Source: Vulcanimicrobiota bacterium | GTDB lineage: Bacteria > Vulcanimicrobiota > Vulcanimicrobiia > Vulcanimicrobiales > Vulcanimicrobiaceae | NCBI GenBank assembly: GCA_963777315.1 | Contig: CAVZQC010000004.1 | Location: 256,001-320,000 of the forward strand | DNA length: 64,000 nt | Reading direction: 5' to 3' | Shown: positions 30,288 through 49,412 of the stretch, piece by piece | Layout of the letters: the number at the start of each line of letters is the position of its first letter | Position numbering within the stretch: the first letter of the stretch is position 1 | Notes under the pieces: model-generated | The model's input: only the letters and a program-made list of their open reading frames with translations | What the model was told of the DNA's origin: nothing | The model's database searches: none | Position numbers and translations under genes: made by a program

Positions 30288-33144
30288 GTGGCTGTTTCTA
30301 CGGGCTCGATGCTTGAGATTCGGCGCGATGCGCTTTTGGACCGGGTCGAGCGCGTGCGGCCGAAGATCACCGCTCTCATCGCGCCGGCGGGATTCGGAAA
30401 ATCTACCCTGGCTCGCCAGCTCATTGCAGGCAGGGCGGCTGCAGTCTGCGACGCCGAAGGCGTAACGGACGAACTCGACCTGGCTCGCCGGCTCGTGCCG
30501 GCCCTAGCCGTGGAAAGCCCAATCCGCACCCATACGCTGACCCAGCGCGAACTGATGCTCGGGGACGGCGGCACCAGCGTAGCTCAGCGCGTGAACTTGG
30601 CGCTCGAGGCTTGGAAAGCCCCGACGGACGACACGATGTTCGTGTTCGAAAACGTCGAGCACATCGGACGCAGTCCGGCGGCGCGGGACTTTTTCGCGCG
30701 TCTGCTCACCCAGCGCGGTGAAGGTCGCGCCATCGTCATTTGCTCGCGAGAGAATTTGCGCGTGCACCTCACGCGCTTTGCGTCGCCGCACGAGATCCTC
30801 ACGCTGCGCGCGGAACATTTAGCCTTCGATCGGTCTGAATTGGGCCGCCTCTTTCCGACGCGCGACGGCGAACCGAATTTTTTGCCGCGCATCATGCGCC
30901 TGTCGCAAGGGTGGCCGATTGCCGTCTTTTTGCTCAAGCGCTTTGCAAGTGAAGGGCGCATCGACGAGCTGCTCGAGAGTTTGGACGACGTCGCGTTCGA
31001 CGAACTGCACGATTATCTGGCCGATCAGGTACTGGCTTCGCTCGATCCCGAACTGGTGAACGCACTGTTTGCCTGCGCCTGCATACCGCACGCGACCATG
31101 GCGGATTTGCAGGCGGCGATTCCGACCGGCGCGGCAGTCCGCGACCTTGCCGCGTTCGCGCGCGAGTCGCCGTTTTTGACGCGAACGAACGCAGGCGAAT
31201 TCGTGCTGCATCCTCTTCTGGCGGCGCTGCTCGTCGAGCACCGCGAAGAGCAGCGCGACGAACTGGTTGCACGCACGGCGCAGGTGCACGAAGACGCGGG
31301 CCGCTACCAGCGCGCGTCGGAACTGCATTTGACGCGCGGCGATGCCGCCGCGGCGGCGCACGCGCTGGGCCAGCACGAAGTCATCCGCGACCCCGCACCG
31401 TCGATGGAATACGCACGGGTGCTGTCTTCGCTGGATCGCTCTTTGGTGCAGCGCTATCCGCGCCTGTGGGCGGTCACCGCGCTGCTGCGCATATTCTGCG
31501 TCGACACCGAGGAACTGCTCGACGAAGCAGAGTCGCTGTGGCGCACGCTCTCACCGGACGCTTCGCCCACCGAGCGATACTACATTCTGGTCTTTCGCGT
31601 ACTGTTCATGAGCTACATCGGCCTGCTGGAAGAAGCGGTCGACGTTCTGGAACGTTTCAGCGCCGAGCAGGGCGTGGGCGAGCGGCCCAAAGATCACTTT
31701 GAAGGATATTTGTTCTATTTGCTGGGCCTCATGCGCGGGCGTCTGGGACTCATTTCGCAGGCGGAGCGCGATTTGACGCTGGCATTGCCGCTGATCGGCG
31801 GCATGGACGTCATGACCTCCGGTACGCTGCTCGCGCTGGGCACCGACGTCGCGCGGGTACGCGGCGAATACGCGATTGCGCGCCAATTCGTCGACCGCGC
31901 CCTGGAGTCGGCGCGTCGATCGGGTTTGTACAATTTCGTGGCGTTCGATCTGGCGGAAGCGGCCCTGGGCGCGTGGCTGGCGTCCGACGACGCGGCGCTT
32001 TCGCGGTACGCCGTCGAGCTCGATGAAGCGGTGCATCGCAACGGGGTTCGCGGCTTGAGCTGATTTTGCGTCGGTCCTGCGCGGACGCACTGAAACGCCC
32101 GCCGACGCCGATTTGCTCAAATGGGTGGCATGCGGGCGCATCATCGAAGCCGCGAACGCCGCCGATTCGCTGCACGCGGTGCGCTACGCTCAGGCCGCGG
32201 TCTCGGCGGCACGCCAGTACGGCGCGCCGTTCATCGAATGTTTGGCCGTCATCGCGCTGGCGACGTTCGATACGATGCGGTTCGAAGACCATATGCGCAT
32301 CGCAATCAACTTGGCCGAGCGGTGCGATTCACCGCAGCTCGTGTCGGCAGTCTACGCCGTCGCGGACAAGCGCGCCGAGCGCGGCATGCTGTCGCCCTTC
32401 ATGCAGCGGCTCGAACGCCGGCGAGAAGAGCGAGTGCCGGTTCTCGAGGTGCAACTCGCCGGCGGCGAGGTGCGCAGTGCGGGCCAGCCGGTTTCGCTTT
32501 CGGAGCGCGAATTTGCGCTGCTGGTCGCGCTGGCGCTCAGACGGGAAGTCGTGCCCCGCTCGCGGCTGGCGGATCTGCTGTGGCCCGAGCTGGACGACTA
32601 CGCGGCGCGCAACGCGCTCAGCGTTTGCCTGCACCGTTTGCGCCATCACCTGGGCAACGATGCGGCAATCGTCCGCAGCAGGGAGGGATATGCTCTGCAC
32701 GACGACGTCAGCGTCGATCTTTGGGAGATCGATCGCGCCGTTGCCGGACTGCGTTCCCGCCCCGCGCTTTCCGACGGCGAGCGGCGCATTCTGACGGGCA
32801 TGCATGAAAAACTGCGGGCGCGAAGGCCCGACCGGATGCTGCAGTGGGAGTGGTTTGAGGCGACGGACCGGCACTTGAACGAACTGCGTTTGGAAGTCGC
32901 CGGCCGCCTTGGCAAGGACGCGCTCAGCCACGGCGATCCGCACCGTGCGCTCGAGCTCGCGCGCGAGATGATCGGATACGATGCCTGCGATGAATCGGCT
33001 CGCCAGATCGCGATCACCGCACATCTGGCCGTCGGCGACCGCGGCGCGGCGCTGCGCCAGTACCGCCAGTACCGCGACATTTTGGCTTCGGAACTGCAGG
33101 TCGAACCGTCCAGCGAGATCAAGCATCTGGTGGGTTTGCCGTGA
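30288..33144 (+). CDS. MalT-like AAA/TPR regulator with C-terminal winged-helix and BTAD domain, split by a frameshift near 32062
   Basis: APAGFGKS, SQGWP, DYLADQV; the second ORF has SRLADLLWPE..NALSVCLHRLR and DACDE..ALRQY..LASELQVEPS. Confidence 0.85.
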
Positions 33145-33740: not shown

Positions 33741-36700
33741 ATGCGTGGGATGTTTGCGTTATGTGTCGCGGCGCTGGCGTTGTGTGCGGCCGCGCCGTCT
33801 TCCGATCCCTTTGCGCAACTGCGCTTTCGCAACGTCGGACCGCAAGTGTCGGGTGGACGGCTGGGCGCGGTTGCGGGAACGGATGCCGATTCCTCGCTGT
33901 ATTATGCAGGCGCGGCGGGCGGGGGCGTATGGAAGACGACGGATGCCGGACAGCAATGGGTGCCGGTATTCGACAAGCAGGACGTGCAGTCGATCGGATC
34001 GATCGCCATCGACCCGTCAAACTCGAACGTCGTATGGGTAGGCAGCGGCGAAGGCGCGCCGCGCAACGACGTAATCCAAGGCGACGGCGTCTATCGAACG
34101 GCCGACGGCGGCAAGGCTTGGCACCGTGTGCTGGCACTGCGCAACGCGCTGGTTGCACGCATCTTGATCGATCCGCGAGATTCGAGCACGGTGCTCGTCG
34201 GCGTGCTCGGCGATCCGTTTGCCGATTCGACCGAGCGAGGCGTGTACCGCACGTCGGACGGCGGCCGGACGTGGAGCAAAACGCTGTACCTTACACCGCG
34301 CACCGGCGTTTCCGACATGGATTCGCTGCCTGCGCAGCCCGGTGTAGTATACGCGGGGATGTGGGATTACCGGCGCACCGGCTGGAGCTCGGACAGCGGC
34401 GGACGAAGCGGCGGATTGTTCAAGTCCTTCGATTTCGGCGCGACGTGGCAACGGCTGAGCGGCAACGGCTTGCCGGGCGCACCGACCGGGCGCATCGGCA
34501 TCGCGATCGCGCCCTCCAATCCACAGCGCGTCTACGCGCTGATCGAATCGAAGCAGGGCTTGCTCTGGAGAAGCGACGACGGGGGACGCAGACTGGCGCG
34601 CGATCAGCGACAACACGCTGATCGACGAGCGGCCGTTTTATTACACTCACGTGTTCGTCGATCCCACGGATCAGAATCACCTGTGGGCCCTGTCGGTCAA
34701 CATCGCCGTCAGCTCGGACGGCGGTAAAACCTGGCGCGTCGGAGCGCACGGCGTTCACGGCGACAATCACGGTATGTGGATTTCGCGGGATGCCAAACGG
34801 ATCATCGAGGCGAATGACGGCGGTCCGTCGTTTTCGTTCGACGATGGCGCGAGTTGGGCCATGCCGCATAATCTTCCGATCGCGCAGCTGTACCACATCG
34901 GGTACGATCGGCAGCGTCCCTATCACGTCTGCGCGCCGCTGCAGGACAACGGCGTGTGGTGCGCGCCCAACGATGGGCTGGACGACTCGGGAATCAGCTC
35001 CTCGCAATGGCGCAGCATGGGCGGCGGTGACGGCACCTGGGTAATGCCGGATCCGAGTGACGCCCACATCGTTTGGTTCAGCAGCGGCGGCGGTAACGCG
35101 CAAGGCGAGCTCGCCTATGTCGACCTGCGCTCCGGCGCAGTGGCGTACGTGCAGCCGTATCTGCGCGACCAGAACGTGGTCGATCCGAAAGTCTTGGCGT
35201 ACCGGTTCAACTGGGAAGAGCCGTTTGCGTTCGATCCGTTCGATCCCCACCATGTATGGGTCGGGGGAAACGTCCTGTTTTCCACGATCGATCGCGGCAA
35301 GCACTGGCGCGTGGTGAGCGGCGACCTCACCCGAAACCTCAAAGCGCATCAAGTGATCACGGGCGGCATCACGCTTGACGGCACGGGTGCCGAAACGTCG
35401 GACACGATCTTGTACATCGAGCCCTCGAAGATCCGTCGCGGACAGATATGGGTCGGCACCGACGATGGTGTGCTGCAGCTGACGCGCGACGGCGGCGTAC
35501 ATTGGCACGATGTGACGCCGTACGGCGTGCGGCACGCCGGCGCAACGGCAAGCTACGGGCGTTTCTCGGGCGTGTCGGCATCCCCGCACGATCCCGCAAC
35601 CGCCTATGCCGTCTACGACGCGCACATGGTCGGCGATCCGGCGCCGCACGTGTACGTTACGCACGACTACGGCGCGCGCTGGAGCGACGTGTCGCGCGGG
35701 TTGCCCGGGCAAATGCCCGCGCGCACCGTGCGAATCGACCCCCGCAATCCGCAGCTGGTGTACGTGGGCCTGGACAACGGGCTGTGGGCTTCCTTCGACG
35801 CGGGTGAGCACTGGCGCAATCTGGCGCTCAACCTTCCGGCGGTTGCGGTTCGCGATATCGCCGTGCAGCCCGACACCGGCGATTTGCTCCTGGCCACACA
35901 CGGCCGTGCCGTCTATATTCTGGACGATGCTACGCCGCTGGAGAAATACGCCGACGTCATGCTCAGTCCGGCGAATCTGCGCGATCGCATTTTTCCGATC
36001 CGGCCGGCGTATCAATGGAATCTGCACCAATTTTACGGGACGCCCGTGGACGGAGCGGGGCCGCCGTACGGCGCGCTCGTGACGTTCTATTTGGACGGCG
36101 CGCGCAACGGTCTGAGCGCGCACATCGTCGACGCGCGCGGACGTTCGGTGCGCACCTTCACGGCAAAGGAACTGGGCGGCCATAGCGGTTTCAACAGGCT
36201 CGCGTGGGATACGACCGAGGACAAACCGGTCGACTGGAAATTCACGCCCGCCTGGAATCAAGGCGTGAGCGCGGGCGCGCCGGTAGTGCCGGGCGTCTAT
36301 ACGTTCGTGCTGCAAGCCGGTGCGGAAACGTTGCGCGCGCCGATAACGGTTCGGCAGGATCCGCGCACGCATTTCACGCAGGCGCAGCTGCGCAGCGGTT
36401 ATGAATCGATGCACCAGCTGCTCTCGGACTTCGGACGGGTGAATTCAGCGCTCAACGTGCTTTCAACCGTGCTGAACGAAGCGCCGCTGCGGGCAGCGCA
36501 ACTCGGCGCCCGCAGTCAGGGCGGTCTGGCGTTGCGCGTGGCCAAGGCCGCCGCGCAGGCCAAACTGCTGCTGCTGAGCATTACGCAAAACCCGGTTAAC
36601 GATCAGGACAACGATTTTCTGACCGACGTCTTGCGCGAGCGACTGCAAGCCGAGCTTGGGTACGCAGGCGGCAACTTGGGCCCGCTATCGCAGGGCGCAC

Positions 36701-36870
36701 ATTCGCAGATGGTGCAGCTGCACGCCCTTACCGACCGGCGGATGCGCGCCGTTCAAGCCTTCGAGGCCGGGCCGTTGCGCGATGTCGACGCCGGCTTGGC
36801 GGGACTAAAAATGCCGGCCCTGACGACGCTGACCAAACGGCCCGTCATGTATAATCCGGGCGGTACGTAA
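33741..36870 (+). CDS. Secreted VPS10/BNR-repeat beta-propeller protein (glycosyl-hydrolase-like), frameshift near 34592
   Basis: Signal peptide, FRNVGP..GGR, repeated S/TxDGGxTW Asp-boxes, HGDNH, RFNW, LATHGR. Confidence 0.88.
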
Positions 36871-37222: not shown

Positions 37223-39457
37223 TCAGTGTGACAGCTGGGTGGCTCGATAATGAAAACCCAATCTCGGCGGTTGCGCGAAAGCCGGATCGCCGCATTGCCA
37301 GAGCAAGAACGAGTACTCGTCGGTGAGCAGCTGTTCGTTTTGGGTCCGCGAGCCGGCCAGGAAGCCGTGACCGGCGTCGTAATCGACGCGCAGAAGTATC
37401 GGCCGTCCGCTGGTGGTGGCCCGCTGCAGCGCAATCGTCATCTTGGCGAGCTCCCATGACGAAACGCGCGGATCGTTGTAGCCGGTAACCAGCATCACCG
37501 CCGGATACGGCGTTCCGTTCACGACGTGGTGATACGCGTCCATCTCGCGTAATGCGCGGAAGCCCGCCGCGTCTTTCACGGTTCCGAATTCGGGAACGTT
37601 GGGCGGCCCGTTGGGCGTGAACTCCGAGCGCAGTGCATTGCTCACGCCCACCACGTCGAGCGCCGCGGCAAACAGATCGGGCCGTGAAGTAATCGCGCGG
37701 CCGATCGTAATGCCGCCCGCGCTGGTCCCTTCGCCGGCGAGATGCTGCTTTGCGGTGTACCTGTGCTGCACCAGATATTCACCGCACGCGATAAAGTCTT
37801 CCCAAGTGTGATTCTTGGTGGCGATCATGCCGGCCCGGTGCCAGCTTTCGCCGTACCAGCCGCCTCCCCGGGGATGGCAAACGGCAAAGACGCCGCCGCG
37901 TTCGAGCCAGGCAATCCGGGTTGCGCTAAAACCGGGCTCAAGAGTAATGCCGTAGGCCCCGTAACCTTCCAAATACGCCGGATGCGAACCGTCCAAGCGC
38001 AGACCTTTGCGATGCACGATCGACAGCGGAACCATGGTTCCATCCGCGCTTGGTGCCTGCACTTCGTCCGAGGTATACGCGGACGTGTCGACCGAAGAGC
38101 GGCTCTTCAAACCCGTGTCGGTGACGGCGCCGTTCGGATCCGCGAAATAATACTGCAGCGACTGCGTCCAGCCGGTCAACGCGAACACCGCGCCGCCGAC
38201 GCGCGGATCGGTGGCCATCAGCGGGATCGACCCTTGGAAGGGCAGCGTGACGGACGAGGCCGCCCCGGGAGCGCCGTCTTGCGCGAGCGCGATCTTGCGA
38301 ATGCGTCCGAAACCGCCTTCGCGCGAGTGCACGTACAAACCGTCGGCGGCAACGCCGATCCGCTGCACGACTTCTTTGCCTGCGGGCACGACGACGCGCG
38401 CAGCGGCGAGATCGGGCGCAGAAAGCGATGTGGCGATCACTTTGAACGTCGGGGCGTCGCGATGCGTGAGCAGAAAAATCGTGTCGCCTTTGACGTCGAA
38501 GCCCGTGACGTCGTCGGCGTCGCCGGCGATCTTTTTCCATGCCGTCCGCGCTGAAGTGAGCGCATCGGAGTTCACGTCGTAAATGTCGAGTTCATTTTTC
38601 ACGCCGTGGAGGATCAGGCCGAGCGTGTAGTGCGATGCCGGCGAGTACGCGACGATGGGAAAATCCGTCAATGCGAAGTGCATGGCGGGATCGACCCCGT
38701 AGCCGAAGACTGCCGGGTCCTCGTCCGGGTTGCGTCCCAGGACGTGCAGGTAATTTACCGCACGCGTCTCCTTCATCGTCGCCGGTTCACCCGGCGCGAG
38801 CTTGGGGAAGCGAACGTAATAAAACGATTTTCCGTCCGGCAGCCAGGACGTTACGCCGACGAAATACGCGCGTTCGATCGTATCGGGCAGCACTTTGCCC
38901 GTTGCGGTTTCGACGACGCGAATGACGGCGTTTTCCGAACCGCCCTCCGAGATGCCGTACGCAACGTGCGACCCGTCCAGCGAGGGAGAGAAGTAGTTGA
39001 TCGTATAGTGTTTGCCTGCGCTTGCGAGGCTATTGGGATCCACCAGCACCCGCTCGGCTCCGCCGTCCCGGCGCCGCACGTAGAGTTTGGGCGTGTTTTC
39101 GCCCGGTTTGAGCTTTTGATAGAAGTAGTATGGTCCGTCTATCGTTACGCCTGAGACAGTTTCGCCGGCGTTGTCGAGCTGTTTGATGCGCCCAAACAAC
39201 CGTTCCCGGGGCGCTCCGAGCAGAGCAAGGACCTTGCGCGCGTACGCGTTTTGCGTTTTGAAAAAGCGCTGCACAACCGGATCGCTCATGTCTTCGAAGT
39301 ACCGGTACGGATCGGTAACCGCCGTTCCGAAATACGTGTCGGTGACGGGTTTGGGTGCCGGCAGCGGCGGGGGAACCGGGATGGTGCGCGTCGCGGCGCC
39401 GGTTAGTCCGGCCGCGAGCACGACGGTGAAAAGAAGGCAAACCAAACGCAGGCGCAC
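37223..39457 (-). CDS. Secreted prolyl oligopeptidase (S9A)
   Basis: GTG 39457 with AAGGAG RBS; signal peptide; DPYRYFED, GYGAYG, RGGG, catalytic GTSAGG, DPRV, AGHG. Confidence 0.93.
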   Translation of the reverse strand: MRLRLVCLLFTVVLAAGLTGAATRTIPVPPPLPAPKPVTDTYFGTAVTDPYRYFEDMSDPVVQRFFKTQNAYARKVLALLGAPRERLFGRIKQLDNAGETVSGVTIDGPYYFYQKLKPGENTPKLYVRRRDGGAERVLVDPNSLASAGKHYTINYFSPSLDGSHVAYGISEGGSENAVIRVVETATGKVLPDTIERAYFVGVTSWLPDGKSFYYVRFPKLAPGEPATMKETRAVNYLHVLGRNPDEDPAVFGYGVDPAMHFALTDFPIVAYSPASHYTLGLILHGVKNELDIYDVNSDALTSARTAWKKIAGDADDVTGFDVKGDTIFLLTHRDAPTFKVIATSLSAPDLAAARVVVPAGKEVVQRIGVAADGLYVHSREGGFGRIRKIALAQDGAPGAASSVTLPFQGSIPLMATDPRVGGAVFALTGWTQSLQYYFADPNGAVTDTGLKSRSSVDTSAYTSDEVQAPSADGTMVPLSIVHRKGLRLDGSHPAYLEGYGAYGITLEPGFSATRIAWLERGGVFAVCHPRGGGWYGESWHRAGMIATKNHTWEDFIACGEYLVQHRYTAKQHLAGEGTSAGGITIGRAITSRPDLFAAALDVVGVSNALRSEFTPNGPPNVPEFGTVKDAAGFRALREMDAYHHVVNGTPYPAVMLVTGYNDPRVSSWELAKMTIALQRATTSGRPILLRVDYDAGHGFLAGSRTQNEQLLTDEYSFLLWQCGDPAFAQPPRLGFHYRATQLSH

Positions 39458-39558
39458 GGCGTATCTCCTTGAGGCGGGCTTCCATATTACAGTCCCTTTA
39501 CGTCCGCCTCCTTGCGCCAAGAGGAGGCTCCTGCGCGTAAGCCTAAAGGCCCATAGCA

Positions 39559-42201
39559 ATGATCCGGCCCGTTGCCGCGGATGGGCGAATCGAAACCGGA
39601 GGCCCATTCACCCCTGTCGTCCGCGCGCGCGTCGTGGACCGCATTTCGTCCGCTGCTTCGCAGCGGATCGCCTTGATCGTTGCCCCCGCGGGTTACGGCA
39701 AATCGGTTGCGCTGCGTCAATACCTGCAAACCGTGGACGGTCCGCACGTGCGTTACGACGTGCGAACCGATCATTCCACGCTGCTGGGTTTCGTGCGCGG
39801 ACTGGCCGACGCGCTGCTGGAGGCCGCACCCGACGCGCGCAAGACCGTTTCGGGCGCTTATGAGAAAAGCCGATCCTCCAAATCGCCGGGCACGGATCTG
39901 GCAATGTGGATGCACGCGCACATCAAGACGTTCACGGGTCTGATCGCCATCGACGATCTGCACGTTGCCGAAAACGATCCCGAGATTTCCAAATTTTTGG
40001 TTTCGCTGATCGAGCGCACTAAAGGGCGCGCGCGCTGGATCATCGCGACTCGGTCGTCCTTGGACTTGCCGGTCGGCTCGTGGCTGGCGTACGGCGACAT
40101 GGATCTGAACATCGACGAGCAAGACCTGCGGTTCACGGTCGACGAGGCGCGCCAAACGGCCAAGGCCTCGCGAGTCGGGGTTCGCGATGAAGAGCTGGCC
40201 GAAATTCTGTCGATGACGGAAGGCTGGCCCACCGCACTCAGCTTCGCGTTGCGGACCTCGACGCGTTCGGTCGATCTGCGAAACATAGCGGCCAGCACGC
40301 GCGAGATGGTGTACCGGTATCTCGCCGAGCAGGTGTACCGCATGCTCGAACAAGACGAGCGCGAGCTGCTGCACTTTATCGCGTATTTGCCCGAAGTCGA
40401 CTTGGAAGTGCTGCGCCGCGCCGGCTACGAAAAAGCCAAGGCCGTCATCGAGGAACTGCGCGACCGCGTCGCCTTTATCTATCCCGACCGGCCCGACGTG
40501 TACCGCTGCCACGATCTGTTTCGGGATTTTCTGCAGCACCAAGTGGAGCTCGAAGGCGACGCCGTCGCCGAACGGATGCAGCGGCGCGTGGCTCAAGCGC
40601 TTGAATCCGCAGGACGCCTTCCCGAGGCGCTGTCCGTCTATACCAAAGCGCGGGCCAACGACGAGATCGTGCGGCTCCTGGAGCTGTACGGCTTCGACCT
40701 GATGGAATACGCGCACGGCGACATCGTGCAAGCGTCGATTGAAGTACTGCCGAAGGAAGTGCGCGCGGTCGATCCGATAGTTTTGGCATTGCGTGCCTCG
40801 AGCGCGCTCAATGCGGGTCGGCTGGATGCTGCCGAATCGCTGTTCGACCGCGCTTTGGAACGGTCCGGCGATTCGATTCTCAGAGCGAAGATAGCGCTTT
40901 CCTTGGCGCTCCTATTGATCAACCAGGGCCGAGACATCATTTCCCTTTTGCAAAGCGTTCGCGATGAGGCACTGCCCAAGGACCTTCTCGGCGAAATCGT
41001 GAGCCTGATGGCGGTAGGATATGCGTACAACGAGCTGCCGGACGACGCCAAACTTGCGATGGCGGAGGCTGAAAGGTTCGTGGCGGAAGTCCAGGCCGAC
41101 GAAGTAAGAGCGAAGATTCTTCAGCGGATCGGCGTGACGGCGTTGAACCTGCAGATGCCGCTGGAAACTATTCTGAACATGCTTACACGAGCCAGCACGC
41201 TCGCGACCGAAAACGCAATGTACGGACTAGCGAGCCGCTCGCTGAACTTCTTGGCAAACGCCATCGAGCTTTACGAAGACAAGGACGACACGGCGAGAAC
41301 CGTATGGTACGCCCAGCAATCCGTGACTGCAGCGATGAAGGCCGGCGATCGCATGAGTTTGCAGAGCGCGCTGCTTCAGCTGGTTCACATCGAAACGAGG
41401 CGCGGTAACCTCGAACGACTGCTCGCGCTCGAGTCGCAGTACATCGCGACCTCGACGACCGATGCTGCCCGTATGGGGTACATCATGCCGGCCAAAGCCG
41501 CAATTGCGGCGTGGGACGGGCGTTTCGACGAAGCGCATCGGATCATTTCGACGGTCGCAGTGAGCAGTCACTATGATTTCGACCGCGCGTTCGACGACGC
41601 GGTGCAGGCACTGTACTTGGTAGCCGATGGCCAACGCCAGCGCGCTCTGGATCTCTCGACGCGGACGCTCGCGCAACTGCAGAATTCGAGCTTTCGATAC
41701 ACCTATGGTAAGCGCATGGGCGACATGGGGCGAATGGTGTGCGCGATCGTTGAAGCTTTGGCCGGCCGGACCACTAATGCCAAACGGATCTTACAGCGCA
41801 AGCCCGAGGACGCATCTCCGTTTGCCGGCGCTCTCCACGAGGTTGCCCTGGCGTGTACGCGAGCGATTGGTACTCCGACGCTGCGGGACGATGCGAAGGA
41901 AGCGTTGGACCAGTTATCGGCGGTCGGCTACGGGGGAATCAGCCGGACCATCGAAAAGGCGCTGGAACGTTGCCTGAAGTCCGAGGGTGCGGTCTCAGGC
42001 GTCTCCTTGACCACAGCGGAGAGCGAAGTGCTCAAGGCGCTCGCCGACGGCAAGAGTCCAAAGGACATTGCCCTTGAAACCGGCCGCAGCGTGTATACGA
42101 TTCAAGCCCACGTGCAGAACCTCATTAAGAAGTTAGGTTGCAGTGGGCGTAATGAGGCTCTGAAGGTGGCTCGTAAGAAGGGCCTAGTGAACTTTAATTA
42201 G
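39559..42201 (+). CDS. MalT-like AAA/TPR LuxR-family transcriptional regulator
   Basis: APAGYGKS, IAIDDLH, TEGWP, YRCHDLFRDFL; C-terminal LTTAESEVLKALADGKSPKDIALETGRSVYTIQAHV. Confidence 0.92.
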   Translation: MIRPVAADGRIETGGPFTPVVRARVVDRISSAASQRIALIVAPAGYGKSVALRQYLQTVDGPHVRYDVRTDHSTLLGFVRGLADALLEAAPDARKTVSGAYEKSRSSKSPGTDLAMWMHAHIKTFTGLIAIDDLHVAENDPEISKFLVSLIERTKGRARWIIATRSSLDLPVGSWLAYGDMDLNIDEQDLRFTVDEARQTAKASRVGVRDEELAEILSMTEGWPTALSFALRTSTRSVDLRNIAASTREMVYRYLAEQVYRMLEQDERELLHFIAYLPEVDLEVLRRAGYEKAKAVIEELRDRVAFIYPDRPDVYRCHDLFRDFLQHQVELEGDAVAERMQRRVAQALESAGRLPEALSVYTKARANDEIVRLLELYGFDLMEYAHGDIVQASIEVLPKEVRAVDPIVLALRASSALNAGRLDAAESLFDRALERSGDSILRAKIALSLALLLINQGRDIISLLQSVRDEALPKDLLGEIVSLMAVGYAYNELPDDAKLAMAEAERFVAEVQADEVRAKILQRIGVTALNLQMPLETILNMLTRASTLATENAMYGLASRSLNFLANAIELYEDKDDTARTVWYAQQSVTAAMKAGDRMSLQSALLQLVHIETRRGNLERLLALESQYIATSTTDAARMGYIMPAKAAIAAWDGRFDEAHRIISTVAVSSHYDFDRAFDDAVQALYLVADGQRQRALDLSTRTLAQLQNSSFRYTYGKRMGDMGRMVCAIVEALAGRTTNAKRILQRKPEDASPFAGALHEVALACTRAIGTPTLRDDAKEALDQLSAVGYGGISRTIEKALERCLKSEGAVSGVSLTTAESEVLKALADGKSPKDIALETGRSVYTIQAHVQNLIKKLGCSGRNEALKVARKKGLVNFN

Positions 42202-42268
42202 GTACACCCACGCCGCGAGGCTGTATTCTTAAGGAGAAGCTACTCTTATATAGGAGCGAATTCGCAAC

Positions 42269-42346
42269 ATGATCACCGCCTTCGCCGTGGCCGCCCTGCT
42301 CGGCCTAATCATCTGCTCCGGTATCTCGCCGGGCACAGTCGGCTAG
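42269..42346 (+). CDS. Unannotated 25-aa hydrophobic peptide MITAFAVAALLGLIICSGISPGTVG (candidate signalling propeptide)
   Basis: ATG 42269 to TAG 42344-42346; TAGGAG RBS at 42251-42256; TG-TATTCT extended -10-like element at 42222-42229; below the ORF-track size cutoff. Confidence 0.65.
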   Translation: MITAFAVAALLGLIICSGISPGTVG

Positions 42347-42377
42347 CGCTACTCCCAAAACACGTAGGAACGCGAAC

Positions 42378-43361
42378 ATGGAAGTGTACACCTTGCCGGC
42401 CGCCGCGTCGGTACTTTCAGGCGACCTTCGCCGTCTGACCAAACTCGTCGTCGAGCATTTGCACGACCCGAGTTTGTTTGCCGATCCGGCCCTCGAGTCG
42501 TCGATGGAGCTGATCCTGGACCGGTTCTGTCTCTCGGTCCAACTTTCCAAACCCGTGGGCTTGGCAACGTGGGCCGTTCGCGAGGGACGCCGGCTGGGAA
42601 CCGCGCGTGCGTCGGTGCTGGCAGATGCCGCGGCGCACGTTATCGCCAGCGAGGCATCGCGCTTCCATATCGATCAGGGCCGCCTGCTGGCGCTGCTCGA
42701 AGTGCTCAAGACCGAGATTCGCTCGGCCTTGTCGGCGCTCAGCGATACGCCGGACGAACCACGTTCGGCCTATTCGGAAACCGCTACCGCGCTGCTCGCG
42801 CTGCTGGGCGAGCGCGATAACCAAACGTGCTGCCATTCCAAAGCCACGGGCGAGTGGGCGCGGCGGTTGTGCGCCGCGATGGGACTGGCCAAGGAGCGGG
42901 CCGAGTTCATCGAGTTGTGCGCGATATTGCACGACATCGGTAAGATTTCAACGCCCGACGAAATTTTGTTCAAGCCCGCGGCCTTGAGTGCCGGCGAATG
43001 GGAAATCATGCGCGACCATTCCGCCGCGGGTCAGCGAATTCTCAATCAGATTCCGTCCCTGGCGCGCTGCGCGTCGATCGTGCGCGCGCATCACGAACGC
43101 TGGGACGGACAGGGCTATCCCGACGCGCTGGCGGGCGAAACGATTCCGTTCGAAGCGCGCGTCGTGGCGGTGGCCGATGCCTTTCATGCCATGATCAGCG
43201 ATCGCCCGTATCGCAAGGCGATCGCGCCGCGCCGGGCCTTGGAGATTCTGGAGTCCGGCCGCGGCACGCAATGGGATCCCTTCGTCGTGGATGCCATGCT
43301 CGGGCTGTTCAGCGGCTCGCGCAAACAGCAAGCGCCGCAGGTCCGGGCCTCCAGCGCGTAA
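42378..43361 (+). CDS. HD-GYP domain phosphodiesterase with a helical N-terminal domain
   Basis: HS, LHDIGK, HHERWDGQGYP, VADAFHAM, RPYRKA, GTQWDP. Confidence 0.93.
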   Translation: MEVYTLPAAASVLSGDLRRLTKLVVEHLHDPSLFADPALESSMELILDRFCLSVQLSKPVGLATWAVREGRRLGTARASVLADAAAHVIASEASRFHIDQGRLLALLEVLKTEIRSALSALSDTPDEPRSAYSETATALLALLGERDNQTCCHSKATGEWARRLCAAMGLAKERAEFIELCAILHDIGKISTPDEILFKPAALSAGEWEIMRDHSAAGQRILNQIPSLARCASIVRAHHERWDGQGYPDALAGETIPFEARVVAVADAFHAMISDRPYRKAIAPRRALEILESGRGTQWDPFVVDAMLGLFSGSRKQQAPQVRASSA

Positions 43362-43393
43362 GCGATTCCCACATACCGGGTCGTGGGCAGACG

Positions 43394-43428
43394 GCGCGCC
43401 TGACCTCCTCAAGGCGCGCTTTCTTTTT
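43394..43428 (+). terminator. Rho-independent terminator after the HD-GYP gene
   Basis: Stem GCGCGCCT/AGGCGCGC followed by TTTCTTTTT. Confidence 0.75.
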
Positions 43429-43470
43429 GTGCGCCACCCAGATGGCACGGCGATACCGCACACTGCGGTC

Positions 43471-43911
43471 ATGGACTACATCATCGGAGCGGGGGCCATC
43501 CTGGAAAGCGGCGAGCGCGGCAGCATTACGCCGGCCAACCTGCACGCGCACGTCGATAGTGCGCTCGCGCAGGCGGTCCGGGTAGCGGCGGTGGATTTCG
43601 AGGGCGGTTCCCCAGACTCGCTGCGACGGTTGCTGCTGGTGGCAAAGGGCTGGAATGCCGCGGCGTTCCGTGCCGGCGTCAGCGACAAGCTGCGCGAGCA
43701 GCGGGTGTGCACGCTGGGGGACGTGCTGACCACGCTGGCGCGCGCGGCCGGTGCAAGCGAGGTGCACCTGTTCGCACACTGGCTGCCCGACGAAGCCACC
43801 TGCGCGCAACTGAGCGCTGCGGGTGTCGGTATCGTGACGCATCCCTTAGAAAGCATCCAGGCCGCATCGGTCGTAGCGGGGCAGCGCCGGCGGCGCTGGA
43901 TGGCTGCCTAA
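43471..43911 (+). CDS. Hypothetical protein
   Basis: ATG 43471 downstream of the terminator; genome-like codon usage; no recognised motif. Confidence 0.6.
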   Translation: MDYIIGAGAILESGERGSITPANLHAHVDSALAQAVRVAAVDFEGGSPDSLRRLLLVAKGWNAAAFRAGVSDKLREQRVCTLGDVLTTLARAAGASEVHLFAHWLPDEATCAQLSAAGVGIVTHPLESIQAASVVAGQRRRRWMAA

Positions 43912-43960
43912 ACTCCGGCACAGCGGGGCCACAGGGTTTGCGGCGACGATCCACAGTAGA

Positions 43961-44647
43961 ATGTTGGATATGCAGCCCGCCCGCGTCGCTGTGGTCGATG
44001 ACGACCGGTTCGTCCGTGAGATGCTCGAGTTGGGGCTCACGCGCGAAGGTTACATCGTGCGAACTGCGGCGGACGGTTTGGCGGCGCTCGATTTGGTGCG
44101 CGCCTGGGATCCCGAAGTGATCGTGCTGGACATCATGATGCCCAAGATCGACGGCGTCACGCTGCTGCCGCGGCTTCGCGAAATCACCCAGGCGCCGATT
44201 CTCATGCTCACGGCCAAAGGCGAAACGGCCGACAAAGTGTCCAGTTTAGGAGCCGGCGCGGACGACTATTTGGTCAAGCCGTTCGTCTTCGAAGAACTCA
44301 TCGCGCGCCTGCAGGCCAAGCTGCGCCGTCCGCAGCTGATCGAAGAACAGGTCCTGCGCTGGCACGAAGTTTCGATCAATCCGGTCACGCGCGAAGCGTG
44401 GCGCGGCCAATCGCGCCTCGATCTCACCCAGCGCGAGTTCGATCTGCTCGAAGTCTTCTTGCGCGAACCGCGGCGGGTGTTCAGCAAAGACCATTTACTC
44501 GAGCTCGTGTGGGGCCACGATTTCGAGGGCGGCCCGAACATCGTGGAAACGTACATTTCCTATCTGCGCGCAAAGATCGACCGGCCCGAGCAGGCGTCTT
44601 CGTTCATTCGCACGGTGCGCGGCGTCGGCTACGGCCTCTCGCAGTAG
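43961..44647 (+). CDS. OmpR/PhoB-family response regulator
   Basis: VVDDD, LDIMMP, LTAK, DYLVKPF, LTQREFDLL, IRTVRGVGY. Confidence 0.96.
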   Translation: MLDMQPARVAVVDDDRFVREMLELGLTREGYIVRTAADGLAALDLVRAWDPEVIVLDIMMPKIDGVTLLPRLREITQAPILMLTAKGETADKVSSLGAGADDYLVKPFVFEELIARLQAKLRRPQLIEEQVLRWHEVSINPVTREAWRGQSRLDLTQREFDLLEVFLREPRRVFSKDHLLELVWGHDFEGGPNIVETYISYLRAKIDRPEQASSFIRTVRGVGYGLSQ

Positions 44648-46096: not shown

Positions 46097-49000
46097 ATGG
46101 CGATGCGCCGACTTTTCGGGCTTTGCTTGACCCTGGCGTTGCTGGCCGGCGCGGCGCCCGTCCTGGCCCAGACCGACACCGGCGAAATCGACATCGTCGT
46201 GCAGGATGCGGCGTCCAAAGCACCCGTCGTGCTGGCGCGCGTCCTGTTGGACGGCCCGGTAATTACCAGCGAATTCACCGGAGACAACGGGCGCGTGCGG
46301 TTCACCGAGGTGCCCGACGGAGTCTATCGGGCGCGCGTGTTTGCGCGCGGCTTCCAGGCGGTGACTTCGGAAAACTTCGAGGTTACGAACGGGCGCATGG
46401 TCACCGTGACGGTCGCCTTGGCGCAGTCGACGGGCAATCTGAAAACGATTGCATCGGTCGTCGCCAAGTCGACGGCAAACGTTTCGACCACGACGATCGA
46501 TGAGAACAGCACGCAGCGCCGGCTTTCGGATACCCTGGCCGATGCGCTGGGCAAACTGTCGGGCGTAAACGTTTCGACCTCGAGCAACGACACCGACGCC
46601 ACGCAGACCGTTTCGCTCGAAGGGCAGGACGCCAGCCAAACGGCGCTCACGCTGGACGGCATTCCGCTCAACGCGCCGGGCTCGGCGGGAGACCTGCGCG
46701 GCATCGGCACCGATCTCTTTACGCGGTCGAACGTGTCGTTCGGTCCGCAAATCGGCGGTTTGGCAGGCGGCGTGAACTTTTCCACGCTGCAGCCCACGCT
46801 GTCGTGGAACAGCGAATTTTCGCTTTCGGTGGGAAGCAACGGCAAAAATAACTACTCGTTCGGCGAAAGCGGAACGCTGGGCAAAGTGGGCCTGGCGGTC
46901 ATGCGTACGTACCGGCTGACGCCGAGCCTGCTGGACGGCATGAGTTTTCTGGACACGAGCGGTTTGAATTACGTTCACGACGGCGACGGCCAGTCCGCCG
47001 GCACGATGCTCAAACTGCGCTACCAGCCCAGCGAGTCGCAAACGCTCACGGGCACGTTCATGAAAACCGCCAACGGGTCGCAGCTGGTGTGCGCGCAAAT
47101 CACCGGACCGCTACCGTGCGGCTACGGACCCAACAACAGCTACGACACCAACTTCAAGCTGTTCTCGCTCAGCGACGACGCGCTGGTGGGCGATACGCAA
47201 GTGCAAGCCTCGGTCTACGGACTGCGCATGGCGTCGACGCGCGACGAGCTCGATCGCTACGTGAACGGTGTGGCCGAACCGACCGGCACCTCGCAATCCA
47301 TGAGCACGAACGGCCTGACGTTCAGCGCCATACTTCCGGCGCGCGACCGGCACACGATCTCGATCAACGGCTACGAAACGAGCAGCGACAGCGCGTTCAC
47401 GCCGCTGGTTGCGCAGGCCGCTCCGTACGTTGTTCCGGGGCAGCACGTGTCGTATGCTGCCGTTACGGTCAACGACAGCATTCGTTCAAACACCAAGCTG
47501 CGCTTCAACGATTCCATCGGCATCAGCCGGGCCAGCAATGCGCCGGCCTCGCTGCTCGTGGGTTTCGGTACGCAATGGAATCCGACCGCCGACGACGGAT
47601 TCGCGTTCACCTATAACATCGGCGGCACCGCCGCGCACGCGGGCCGCTTCGGCGTGCTCAGCGATCCGGCGCAGCTGCGAATCGACTGCAATGGCGACGT
47701 CGCCTACGGGAACGCGCCCGGAGACGAGCCCGGTGCGAGCTCTTCGAATTCGGCGCGCTTGAGTTACACCCACAAAATGCGCGCCGGCTTGATCAGCACG
47801 CAGGTGTACCGTCAGGTGCAGCACGACGTCGTGCTGCCCACGCAGGTCAACGGCAGCGTGCTCTCGGGGATGGGTGCCTTTCCGCCGGACTATTTCGGCC
47901 AGGTGCAGCAAACGTACCAGAACGCGTGCGGTACGGCGGCGCCCTTTGGACCGGTCAACACGTATTTCCAGACGCCCATCGGCAACGTCCAGCGCGTATA
48001 CGAAGGCGCGCAGATCTCGGCGTTCTATACGCTGGGGCCGGTCGTCATCGAGCCGTACTACAACGTGCAGGTGGCCAAAGCGCTCAGCGGCGACGTTCGC
48101 CTGAACAATCCTTACTCGATTACGATTCCCGCCGCGCAGCCTGCCCAACGTTCCGCTCCACCGCGCCGGAATCACGGTCGATTACAAGGCGCCGCGTTCT
48201 GCGTTCGAATGGCTGGCCGATGCAAACTACACCGGCGCCAACAATTCCCAAAATCTGCCGGCGTACACGACCGTCGACGCGGGCGTCGACGCGCATTTGC
48301 GGCGAGGCGATTTGGTTTTTGCCGCCAGCAACGTGTTCAACACGTACGGCGGCGCGTTCGCCGGCTCGCAGTGGGCAGTCCCGTACACGACCTTGGGCGG
48401 CACGCAGATCGCAACGATCGCGCGTCCGAACCCGCCTCGGCAATACTCGGTGACGTACACCGTGCGCTTCGGGCAAGGCGTGGCGCAAAACGGCAACTCG
48501 GGCGCGCCGCTGCTTTCCCAGCAAGGGCCGGAAGGCCGGGGCGGCTCGCGAGGGCGCGGATTCCGGCAATTCGGCGCTCCGCTTCCACAGAGCCCGCCGG
48601 CCGATCCGTTCGCGCTCAACGCCACGCCCATGTGCACGGCGGAGGCGCAAAAAGCCGCTCAGCCCATTCTGAACGGCCTCAAAAACTACGTAGCGCAAAT
48701 CAACGCGCTCAAGGGCGCGCAAGGCTTTCCCGCCGCGGTTCCGCCGGCCGGCATCCCGGGATTGAACGTGCAGTATCACGGGCTGGGTTCGACGTACGCG
48801 CTCACCGTTACGCTCACGCAGACGGCGCAGATGCGCTCGCTGTTCGGCTGCACGACGCTCCATATTGCCGACCAGCAGACGGCCCAGCAGCGCAGCCTCT
48901 ACGTGCAGCCCAGCTCGAGCGGCATGTTCTTCCGGCCTGCAGTGACGTTCATGCCCTCGGTGGGTCTGTATTTCGTTCGGCGGCCTCCGCAGCCGGGCAC

Positions 49001-49412
49001 GCAGAGTTTCCGTCTGTACAAACTGCCCGCTGCTGCGCCGAGCACGCCGTTTGCGCTGCACGCCGTTTCGACTACGTGTACGGCGGACATGCACGCCGCA
49101 GCGCAAACCGCCCTTGCGCAGCTCCAGGCGCACTTTGCCGACAATGCGCCTGCGCCCGCGTGGACGATCGCTTCGCATGCGGCAAAGGCCGGGACGTGGT
49201 ATTCGCTCGAACCGGTCGACATCGGGACGGTTCCCGCGCTGCTCAACTGCGGACACGTTGCCGCCGCGAATCGTCAGGCGCTGTCGGCGTTGGGATGGGA
49301 TGGCGAACGTCCGCCGACGCTGAACTACGCGCCCGCGCTGGGACTGTACGTTATGATGGGCATGCCGGGCGGCGGTCCGCGCCCGTCCGCATCGCCCAGT
49401 CCCGCGCCGTAG
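46097..49412 (+). CDS. TonB-dependent receptor-like protein with a C-terminal tandem-domain extension, frameshift near 48141
   Basis: Signal peptide, carboxypeptidase-regulatory-like N-domain, plug LTLDGIPL..AGGVNF, barrel end NVFN..RQYSVTYTVRF, then about 310 further residues. Confidence 0.8.

Follow-up and report, generated by a model that had tools for sequence, protein, structure and literature searches.

A stretch of 64 000 nt from a Vulcanimicrobiota bacterium (assembly GCA_963777315.1, contig CAVZQC010000004.1, positions 256 001 to 320 000; hereafter the window) carries a STAND-type regulator gene (39559–42201, + strand, 880 aa), followed by a gene for a 25-aa hydrophobic peptide, i.e. 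a candidate pheromone precursor (42269–42346, +), and a gene for an HD-GYP phosphodiesterase (42378–43361, +, 327 aa). We regard this locus as a real feature and as a new variant of peptide signalling, built from parts unlike those of the RRNPP family. The best reading, which we consider probable, is a STAND activator that responds to a peptide and whose pheromone gene is autoregulated, here controlling the breakdown of cyclic di-GMP (c-di-GMP); an equally probable part of this reading is that regulator and peptide form a two-gene signalling module with the HD-GYP enzyme as cargo. A preliminary description of the same DNA had proposed a peptide-signalling system at this place. What it observed is confirmed as a whole, and its interpretation is partly supported; the promoter box and −10 architecture reported below are new.

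The small open reading frame (ORF) lies 67 nt past the regulator stop, as first reported, and the HD-GYP gene starts 31 nt after it. It encodes MITAFAVAALLGLIICSGISPGTVG, with an uncharged hydrophobic core and the tail SGISPGTVG, which contains a single Pro, and it matched no Pfam or NCBIfam family. The reported ribosome-binding site is the Shine–Dalgarno-like TAGGAG at 42251–42256 (+), located 12 nt upstream of the ATG; this spacing is long, but it recurs, at 11–12 nt, in L002, L004 and L007, and GGAG or GAGG precedes most homologous peptides.

Homologous loci were collected in 61 related genomes and by scanning genome collections twice and metagenomes once, and those lacking the regulator C-terminus or having less than 250 nt downstream were dropped together with duplicates, leaving 65 non-redundant loci of the Eremiobacterota clade. 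Peptide, box and neighbour counts on these loci include two from unpublished genomes (L012 in G029 and L014 in G021), and no claim depends on either alone. As the preliminary description had anticipated, the DNA downstream of the regulators contains a conserved small ORF: a hydrophobic ORF of 18–30 aa occurs in 53/65 loci, and 50/65 comply with the full rule, i.e. a start 25–140 nt after the regulator stop, 18–30 aa, hydrophobicity and a Pro/Gly tail. Since the rule was derived from the peptides themselves, the value of 50/65 is biased upwards, and the evidence lies in the controls. Among 1657 genes of at least 300 aa of the same genome (the window's locus being counted both here and among the 65), 58 are followed by a hydrophobic ORF and six satisfy the full rule; the latter was found in 0/29 loci of the paralogue clade and in 0/36 distant MalT-like loci, one of which has a hydrophobic ORF. 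Four of the 15 misses (L010, L035, L088 and L092) have longer precursors with Pro/Gly tails, three (L006, L014 and L032) fail narrowly, and L008 and L022 are degenerate, with the box retained and the peptide ORF interrupted in L022. Separately, the peptide ORF of L007 is frameshifted, in a genome with other frameshifts.

Across 13 pairs of peptide genes of equal length, changes at codon positions 1, 2 and 3 numbered 85, 56 and 136, respectively. This bias, together with the recurrence of the small ORF, shows that it is coding and conserved. The 55 peptides considered are 19–44 aa long, within the 10–100 aa expected of propeptides; 53 of them have a Pro among their nine C-terminal residues, 36 have PP there and 32 end in Gly, and the tails are nearly all distinct (47 different ones among 48 loci). 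Lys or Arg is found in one peptide, and the Arg-bearing arrest motifs RAPP, RAGP and RGPP are not a feature of the set. The gap between regulator and peptide gene (67 nt here, 34–129 nt in the relatives) falls within the −60 to 400 bp that define adjacency in RRNPP systems; the membership limits used here and below are those given in the accessible part of PMC10075063.

The regulator is composed, in this order, of a nucleotide-binding oligomerization domain (NOD), a winged helix, an arm, a sensor of helical repeats resembling tetratricopeptide repeats (TPR; residues ~420–790) and a C-terminal LuxR-type helix-turn-helix (HTH; 816–870), i.e. the complete set of elements of MalT/LAL STANDs. Pfam assigned AAA_22 (34–156) and GerE (816–870), and the NOD motifs Walker A (APAGYGKS), Walker B (IDDLH) and GWP, the latter of the GxP type, are invariant or nearly so in alignments of 26 and 47 rows. 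In Foldseek, the AlphaFold2 model of the full-length protein (pLDDT 87) matched PH0952 (6MFV, E 5.8e-12) and MalT (8BOB, E 1.3e-11) best, and the list of matches contained no RRNPP structure. As to the TPR region claimed for the regulator, the model has an all-helical repeat region that matches the TPR-sensor protein PH0952, and the Pfam hits to TPR_2 and TPR_12 remain under cut-off. The MalT equivalog NF003420 (NCBIfam) reached 154 bits, over the N-terminal half only, against a cut-off of 537. On sequence and fold, the regulator is thus classified as a MalT/PH0952-type STAND with a LuxR HTH, and as neither an RRNPP member nor MalT. Its closest homologues come from records of Baltobacteraceae, Eremiobacterota or Vulcanimicrobiota. 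The sensor is its most variable part, with a mean column identity of 0.46 versus 0.68 in the nucleotide-binding domain; according to the accessible text of PMC6468293, the sensor contained the primary inducer site in several of the STANDs studied, and the bound inducer opens the NOD. Two further observations concern the regulator gene. L068 and L081 differ by 3–4 % in NOD and arm and by 40 % in sensor and HTH, with a box in L081 only, a pattern that looks like recombination within the gene; and tandem regulator copies were found at G023:C203:14276-19440, G127:C6:61717-65826 and G110:C3:165023-169192.

An imperfect 18-bp palindrome, CTAGTGA-ACTT-TAATTAG (42184–42201), spans the last codons and the stop of the regulator gene and is the predicted regulator site. 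The −10-like element of the preliminary description corresponds to the hexamer TATTCT at 42224–42229 (+), which predicts a transcription start at ~42236 and places the centre of the box near −43, with no −35 consensus. Class II activators bind near −43, and the lux box lies near −42.5 in class II activation of the LuxR type. With hand-assigned peptide starts, boxes of at least 11 bits following the consensus CTA(C/G)TNA-N4-TNA(C/G)TAG are present in 55/65 loci, and in 54 of these 55 a TAnnnT hexamer, kept out of the box matrix, follows 20–21 nt after the box, as compared with 4.8 % in shuffles. When the genome was scanned with a matrix built without the window's site, its best box was that at 42184–42201, with 24.5 bits versus maxima of 16.6–18.8 in three shuffles. 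Boxes of at least 11 bits are not enriched genome-wide (28 versus 43–67 in shuffles), and only the top site and those with a correctly spaced −10 hexamer were taken seriously. In one lineage (L005, L037, L040 and L045), exactly 6 nt separate the hexamer from the peptide ATG, as for a leaderless start. The half-sites vary together with the HTH: one clade combines CTCGTCC half-sites with a distinct recognition helix, and a Lys in the recognition helix coincides with a C at the fifth position of each half-site in 6/7 loci, versus 2/42 others. Very probably, the box is bound by the regulator, which thereby activates the transcript of the peptide and HD-GYP genes. This transcript would end at a GC-rich hairpin with a T-run (43393–43428, +), which agrees with the terminator first reported and resembles an intrinsic terminator (folding z=−2.91 for a 79-nt stretch). 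A scan for consensus promoters and terminators listed neither the peptide promoter nor this terminator, the loop of which exceeds the limit of the scan. The second-best box of the genome (G000:C1:15522, 17.1 bits, −10 hexamer at 20 nt) precedes a short segment that contains an ORF of nine codons and a GC hairpin, possibly a small RNA target.

In the HD-GYP protein (Pfam HD_5, E 2e-38), alignment to PmGH (4MCW) shows the metal ligands, the HD, HHERWDGxGYP and RPYR motifs to be intact, and the motifs are present in 15/15 matched relatives. It shares HD, HHExxDGxGYP and RxY[K/R] with PmGH and PA4781 (4R8Z), and differs from them by an uncharacterised N-terminal helical domain of ~135 aa (RsbRD_N lead score 0.78, under the lead threshold) and by the lack of an equivalent of the acidic E185 of PmGH, the residue of the trinuclear group; Gln is found here, and Q, A or L in 15/15 relatives. 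Enzymes without an acidic residue at this position are described, in the accessible part of 10.1101/2021.11.05.467447, as binuclear, preferring c-di-GMP and likely to stop at pGpG. The Gln therefore predicts a binuclear, c-di-GMP-preferring HD-GYP, i.e. an enzyme specific for c-di-GMP and probably stopping at pGpG. The gene follows the peptide gene in 41/50 loci with enough flank, starting 6–60 nt downstream in most, and is therefore a common cargo rather than core. Of the proposed wiring to c-di-GMP turnover, the intact enzyme thus stands, and its being an integral part of the system does not. The genome contains 11 GGDEF domain matches, with GGDEF genes directly upstream of both paralogues of the regulator (G000:C1:230259 and G000:C2:149408), so that all three STAND genes of this genome adjoin c-di-GMP enzymes.

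The preliminary description had proposed receptor–peptide covariation as a check. The comparison used FastTree trees and 24 path-disjoint pairs on a NOD-only tree. Once the NOD distance was removed, tail and sensor divergence were correlated (rho 0.65, p 0.0007), as compared with a rho of 0.03 for tail and HTH over the same pairs; the link between tail and sensor was 0.67 under a synonymous clock and 0.81 with the HD-GYP distance as a further clock (17 pairs). Peptide and sensor thus change in step, and the divergence test does not locate the ligand part, i.e. the covariation holds for the precursor and is not specific to the tail. The C-terminal tail, suggested earlier to be the signal, is thus not singled out by these tests. 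In a partial Mantel test over all pairs, the tail (0.32) seemed to stand out from the N-terminal part (0.07); this apparent tail specificity was rejected, as kin are non-independent and the paired test did not reproduce it. Co-folding residues 330–800 of L035, the sensor of a relative, with the 35-aa repeat peptide of that locus (47-row alignment; score 0.02, mark 0.32) was uninformative either way.

More evidence comes from relatives in which the same sensor occurs without the ATPase. A hidden Markov model of the sensor alone found 8/8 tested TPR-LuxR proteins that are ATPase-less or cut (E 1.7e-34 to 7.7e-14; one of the eight is cut by a contig end) and matched 0/16 shuffled or reversed controls. 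These ATPase-less relatives are 470–535 aa long, and 11 of 13 non-redundant loci have an adjacent hydrophobic ORF with a PPxx-type tail, beside other neighbours and twice on the divergent strand; their protein alignment is too divergent for a pattern scan. With E up to 1e-20, the sensor query hit 36/55 genomes of the window's family and 0/65 of other families, and it found no match in a phage collection; the full-length regulator query also reaches a basal form in the sister family. Precursors of the basal forms carry a basic n-region and a Cys in 6/6 cases, with LAAC in four. Tandem tail units occur as well, i.e. three VVPVGG units in L035, the regulator of which is 60 % identical to that of the window, and four AIPV units in L213. 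Finally, paralogues adjoin secreted precursors with tandem repeats of 7–8 residues: in a paralogue clade (~33 % identity, one copy in the genome studied here), the regulator gene is followed by that of a subtilase-like lipoprotein, the leader of which has at least two xxxxALPG-type units in 14/18 loci. The variant box of this clade precedes a pro-kumamolisin-type protease gene and a divergent STAS gene, and not the repeat-bearing gene.

Some individual paralogues deserve mention. At L254 (G000:C2:154711) the variant box is flanked by −10 hexamers on both sides. On the minus strand it serves a leaderless STAS gene; on the plus strand lie ~70 nt with a terminal hairpin and T-run, possibly a small RNA, in the place taken by the protease gene in relatives. 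In this genome, the protease of this type is found at C2:848940 with a box of its own. A third paralogue, L255 (G000:C1:231503-235308), has no HTH and overlaps an HD-GYP gene; it faces an ORF in which a hydrophobic leader precedes eight DSASALP repeats.

The peptide is probably, and with fair confidence, the ligand of the sensor. In the mechanism that we propose, the hydrophobic part would take the precursor into the inner membrane and be cut off, and the Pro/Gly tail of 5–9 residues would serve as the ligand of the TPR-like sensor; we give these steps jointly the same good chance. Export and return of the tail are somewhat less secure: it may well leave the cell and re-enter through an oligopeptide permease, in which case the loop would read cell density. 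By analogy with MalT, the ligand would free the NOD, ADP would be exchanged for ATP and the regulator would oligomerise, turning transcription on; inducer-triggered opening and multimerisation are given as the likely switch of MalT/LAL STANDs in the accessible part of PMC6468293. The peptide appears about twice as likely to be an agonist as an antagonist; were it an agonist, the loop would be autoinducing and would here raise a binuclear HD-GYP that cuts c-di-GMP to pGpG. It is tempting to extend this reading, with a slight balance in its favour, to a family of Eremiobacterota that evolved its own peptide quorum-sensing language independently of RRNPP. This language would rest on one TPR-like sensor family, preceded in some members by a STAND ATPase switch and followed by a LuxR HTH or an HD-GYP partner, which would read Pro/Gly-rich pheromones. 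These would be produced in the form of micro-peptides, lipoprotein precursors or repeats carried by a secreted protease.

Several results weigh against the proposed pheromone loop. Six regulators (L026, L070, L072, L073, L124 and L127) have no peptide gene behind them, and the clade with TPPDPF tails lacks the box in 7/8 loci and keeps its tail constant while the sensors differ by 40 %. The link between recognition helix and box comes from 4 independent pairs only and is non-significant (3 to 0.3, p 0.25), and the hydrophobic part (rho 0.65–0.69) and the HD-GYP protein (0.61) track the sensor too. As for export, the signal-like core described before is hydrophobic and lacks a basic n-region, which makes it non-canonical as a Sec signal; the same is true of 54/55 short precursors, a lipobox is found in 8/55, and there are two membranes to cross. 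With regard to Sec or SHP-type (PptAB) export, the short precursors thus offer a hydrophobic core but almost never a basic n-region, and the basal relatives have both the basic n-region and the Cys. The genome has importer genes, for 13 family-5 binding proteins, and a protease gene of the M50 type, all of them generic and unlinked to the locus. It also encodes an Omp85 protein above the family cut-off, which supports a two-membrane envelope; the host is an uncultured soil-type bacterium with two membranes, in line with the diderm host assumed earlier. Among the loci lacking a peptide, L070, L072 and L073 are orphan regulators with neither peptide nor HD-GYP gene.

The main rival, although unlikely, is a peptide that acts inside its producer, i.e. 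a small membrane protein acting on the regulator or the HD-GYP enzyme as a tether, an inhibitor or an activator, without any signal between cells. The missing basic n-region and the co-divergence of the hydrophobic part, which tracks the sensor no less closely than the tail, would suit such a protein, and MalT itself is under the control of inhibitory proteins (PMC10427625, accessible part). On the other hand, the hydrophobic runs are short (4–15 residues by a strict count), L032 and L035 have no core at all yet keep their Gly/Pro tails, and the peptide is retained where the HD-GYP gene is lost. In addition, the tandem tail copies and lipoprotein-type signals of the sister clades fit better with export and cutting than with an intracellular peptide; in RRNPP precursors, internal repeats are common and mark the mature peptide (PMC9765709, accessible part).

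It is very improbable that the regulator activates the operon in response to a metabolite or protein and that the peptide is output only, e.g. a secreted or membrane-active effector. In favour of this reading are the sugar sensed by MalT, the occurrence of orphan regulators and the box of the paralogue clade, which drives the protease and STAS genes rather than the repeat-bearing gene; but an output would leave unexplained why the divergence of the peptide remains coupled to that of the sensor once three clocks are allowed for, and why Pro/Gly-tailed peptides or repeats lie beside this sensor family in three architectures, versus 0/36 distant MalT-like loci. Least probable of all is a cis-acting leader or ribosome-arrest peptide with Pro-Pro near its stop controlling HD-GYP translation and a regulator that senses an unrelated ligand. 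PP within the last nine residues of 36/55 peptides and the short distance to the HD-GYP start speak for it; however, the window's peptide has a single Pro, RAPP/RGPP-type motifs require Arg (PMC12992588, accessible part), which with Lys is confined to 1/55 peptides, and peptides of 20–25 aa would lie wholly in the ribosome exit tunnel. Moreover, 9/50 loci keep the peptide gene without HD-GYP, and such genes also adjoin ATPase-less receptors that have different neighbours, in two cases on the divergent strand.

The pheromone loop that we favour would work like Rgg/SHP or PlcR/PapR, yet lies outside RRNPP by receptor length and architecture. As in the RRNPP(A) systems, including ComR/ComS, a cytoplasmic helical-repeat regulator is found beside a hydrophobic precursor of 20–25 aa with a variable C-terminal part, a regulator box precedes the peptide gene, and internally repeated precursors and orphan receptors occur (PMC10075063 and PMC9765709, accessible parts). 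In contrast to them, the receptor has 880 aa instead of 250–500 aa, which only the ATPase-less relatives come near, and combines an N-terminal STAND NOD with a C-terminal GerE/LuxR HTH in place of an N-terminal Cro/C1-type HTH or a Rap-type bundle; diderm host, Pro/Gly tails and HD-GYP cargo differ as well. Of the RRNPP-like design proposed earlier, the adjacent short propeptide and the helical-repeat regulator therefore hold, and the assignment to a MalT/PH0952-type STAND sets it apart. A detector limited to 250–500 aa would miss this regulator. Compared with MalT and PH0952, it has the NOD, arm, TPR-type sensor and LuxR HTH as well as the best fold matches; it differs from MalT in scoring far under the cut-off, in the palindromic 18-bp site, in the adjacent peptide gene, in the existence of ATPase-less versions of the same sensor and in that no maltose genes were seen nearby. 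The palindrome near −43 before a signal gene, with no −35 consensus, also recalls LuxR-type class II activation, from which it differs by a peptide gene in place of the acyl-homoserine lactone (AHL) synthase and by a sensor unrelated to the AHL-binding domain.

No description of this system was found in the literature searched, which comprised listings and abstract openings, most subscription journals and supplements lying outside it. The accessible part of 10.1101/2024.03.06.583649 speculates that mycobacterial TPR-LuxR proteins could bind peptides and gives no peptide gene. Cytoplasmic peptide receptors have been described for Bacillota, and surveys, as far as their text is accessible, treat them as a Firmicutes trait with receptors of at most 500 aa. 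If our reading is correct, peptide signalling would extend to a receptor–peptide family that is widespread and diversified in a diderm phylum, most of which is uncultured; one among the many MalT/LAL orphans would gain a class of ligands, and the on/off switch of STANDs would be joined to c-di-GMP turnover. The extended reading of an independent peptide language would also make a STAND (NLR-like) ATPase the receptor of a self-peptide, with cytoplasmic peptide signalling across a two-membrane envelope, tied to c-di-GMP. The dozens of natural triples of receptor, peptide and box are testable without culturing the host and could serve as orthogonal signalling parts. In summary of the pairing itself, the conserved coding ORF, the activator-type box and the ATPase-less pairings sustain the proposed regulator–peptide pair, for which binding, export and quorum behaviour are what we infer.

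Regarding the surroundings of the locus, no Rfam match was found up to E=1 within 39000–44000. A secreted-looking prolyl oligopeptidase (Peptidase_S9_N and S9; 37223–39607, −) is encoded divergently from the regulator; it suggested a processing function but was rejected as a core part, being present in 2/65 loci only, with uneven flanks. Downstream, a gene for a ~146-aa protein with no Pfam match (43471–43911, +) is conserved behind the module in 39/65 loci and marks the locus as a syntenic chromosomal site; genes for a response regulator and a histidine kinase come after it. A few kb upstream lies part of a SARP-type regulator (Trans_reg_C and BTAD; 32113–33144, +). Two long genes of the window, each apparently split by a frameshift, are located at 33741–36870 (+) and 46097–49412 (+); by eye, we take the former to be beta-propeller glycosidase-like and the latter to be outer-membrane-receptor-like.

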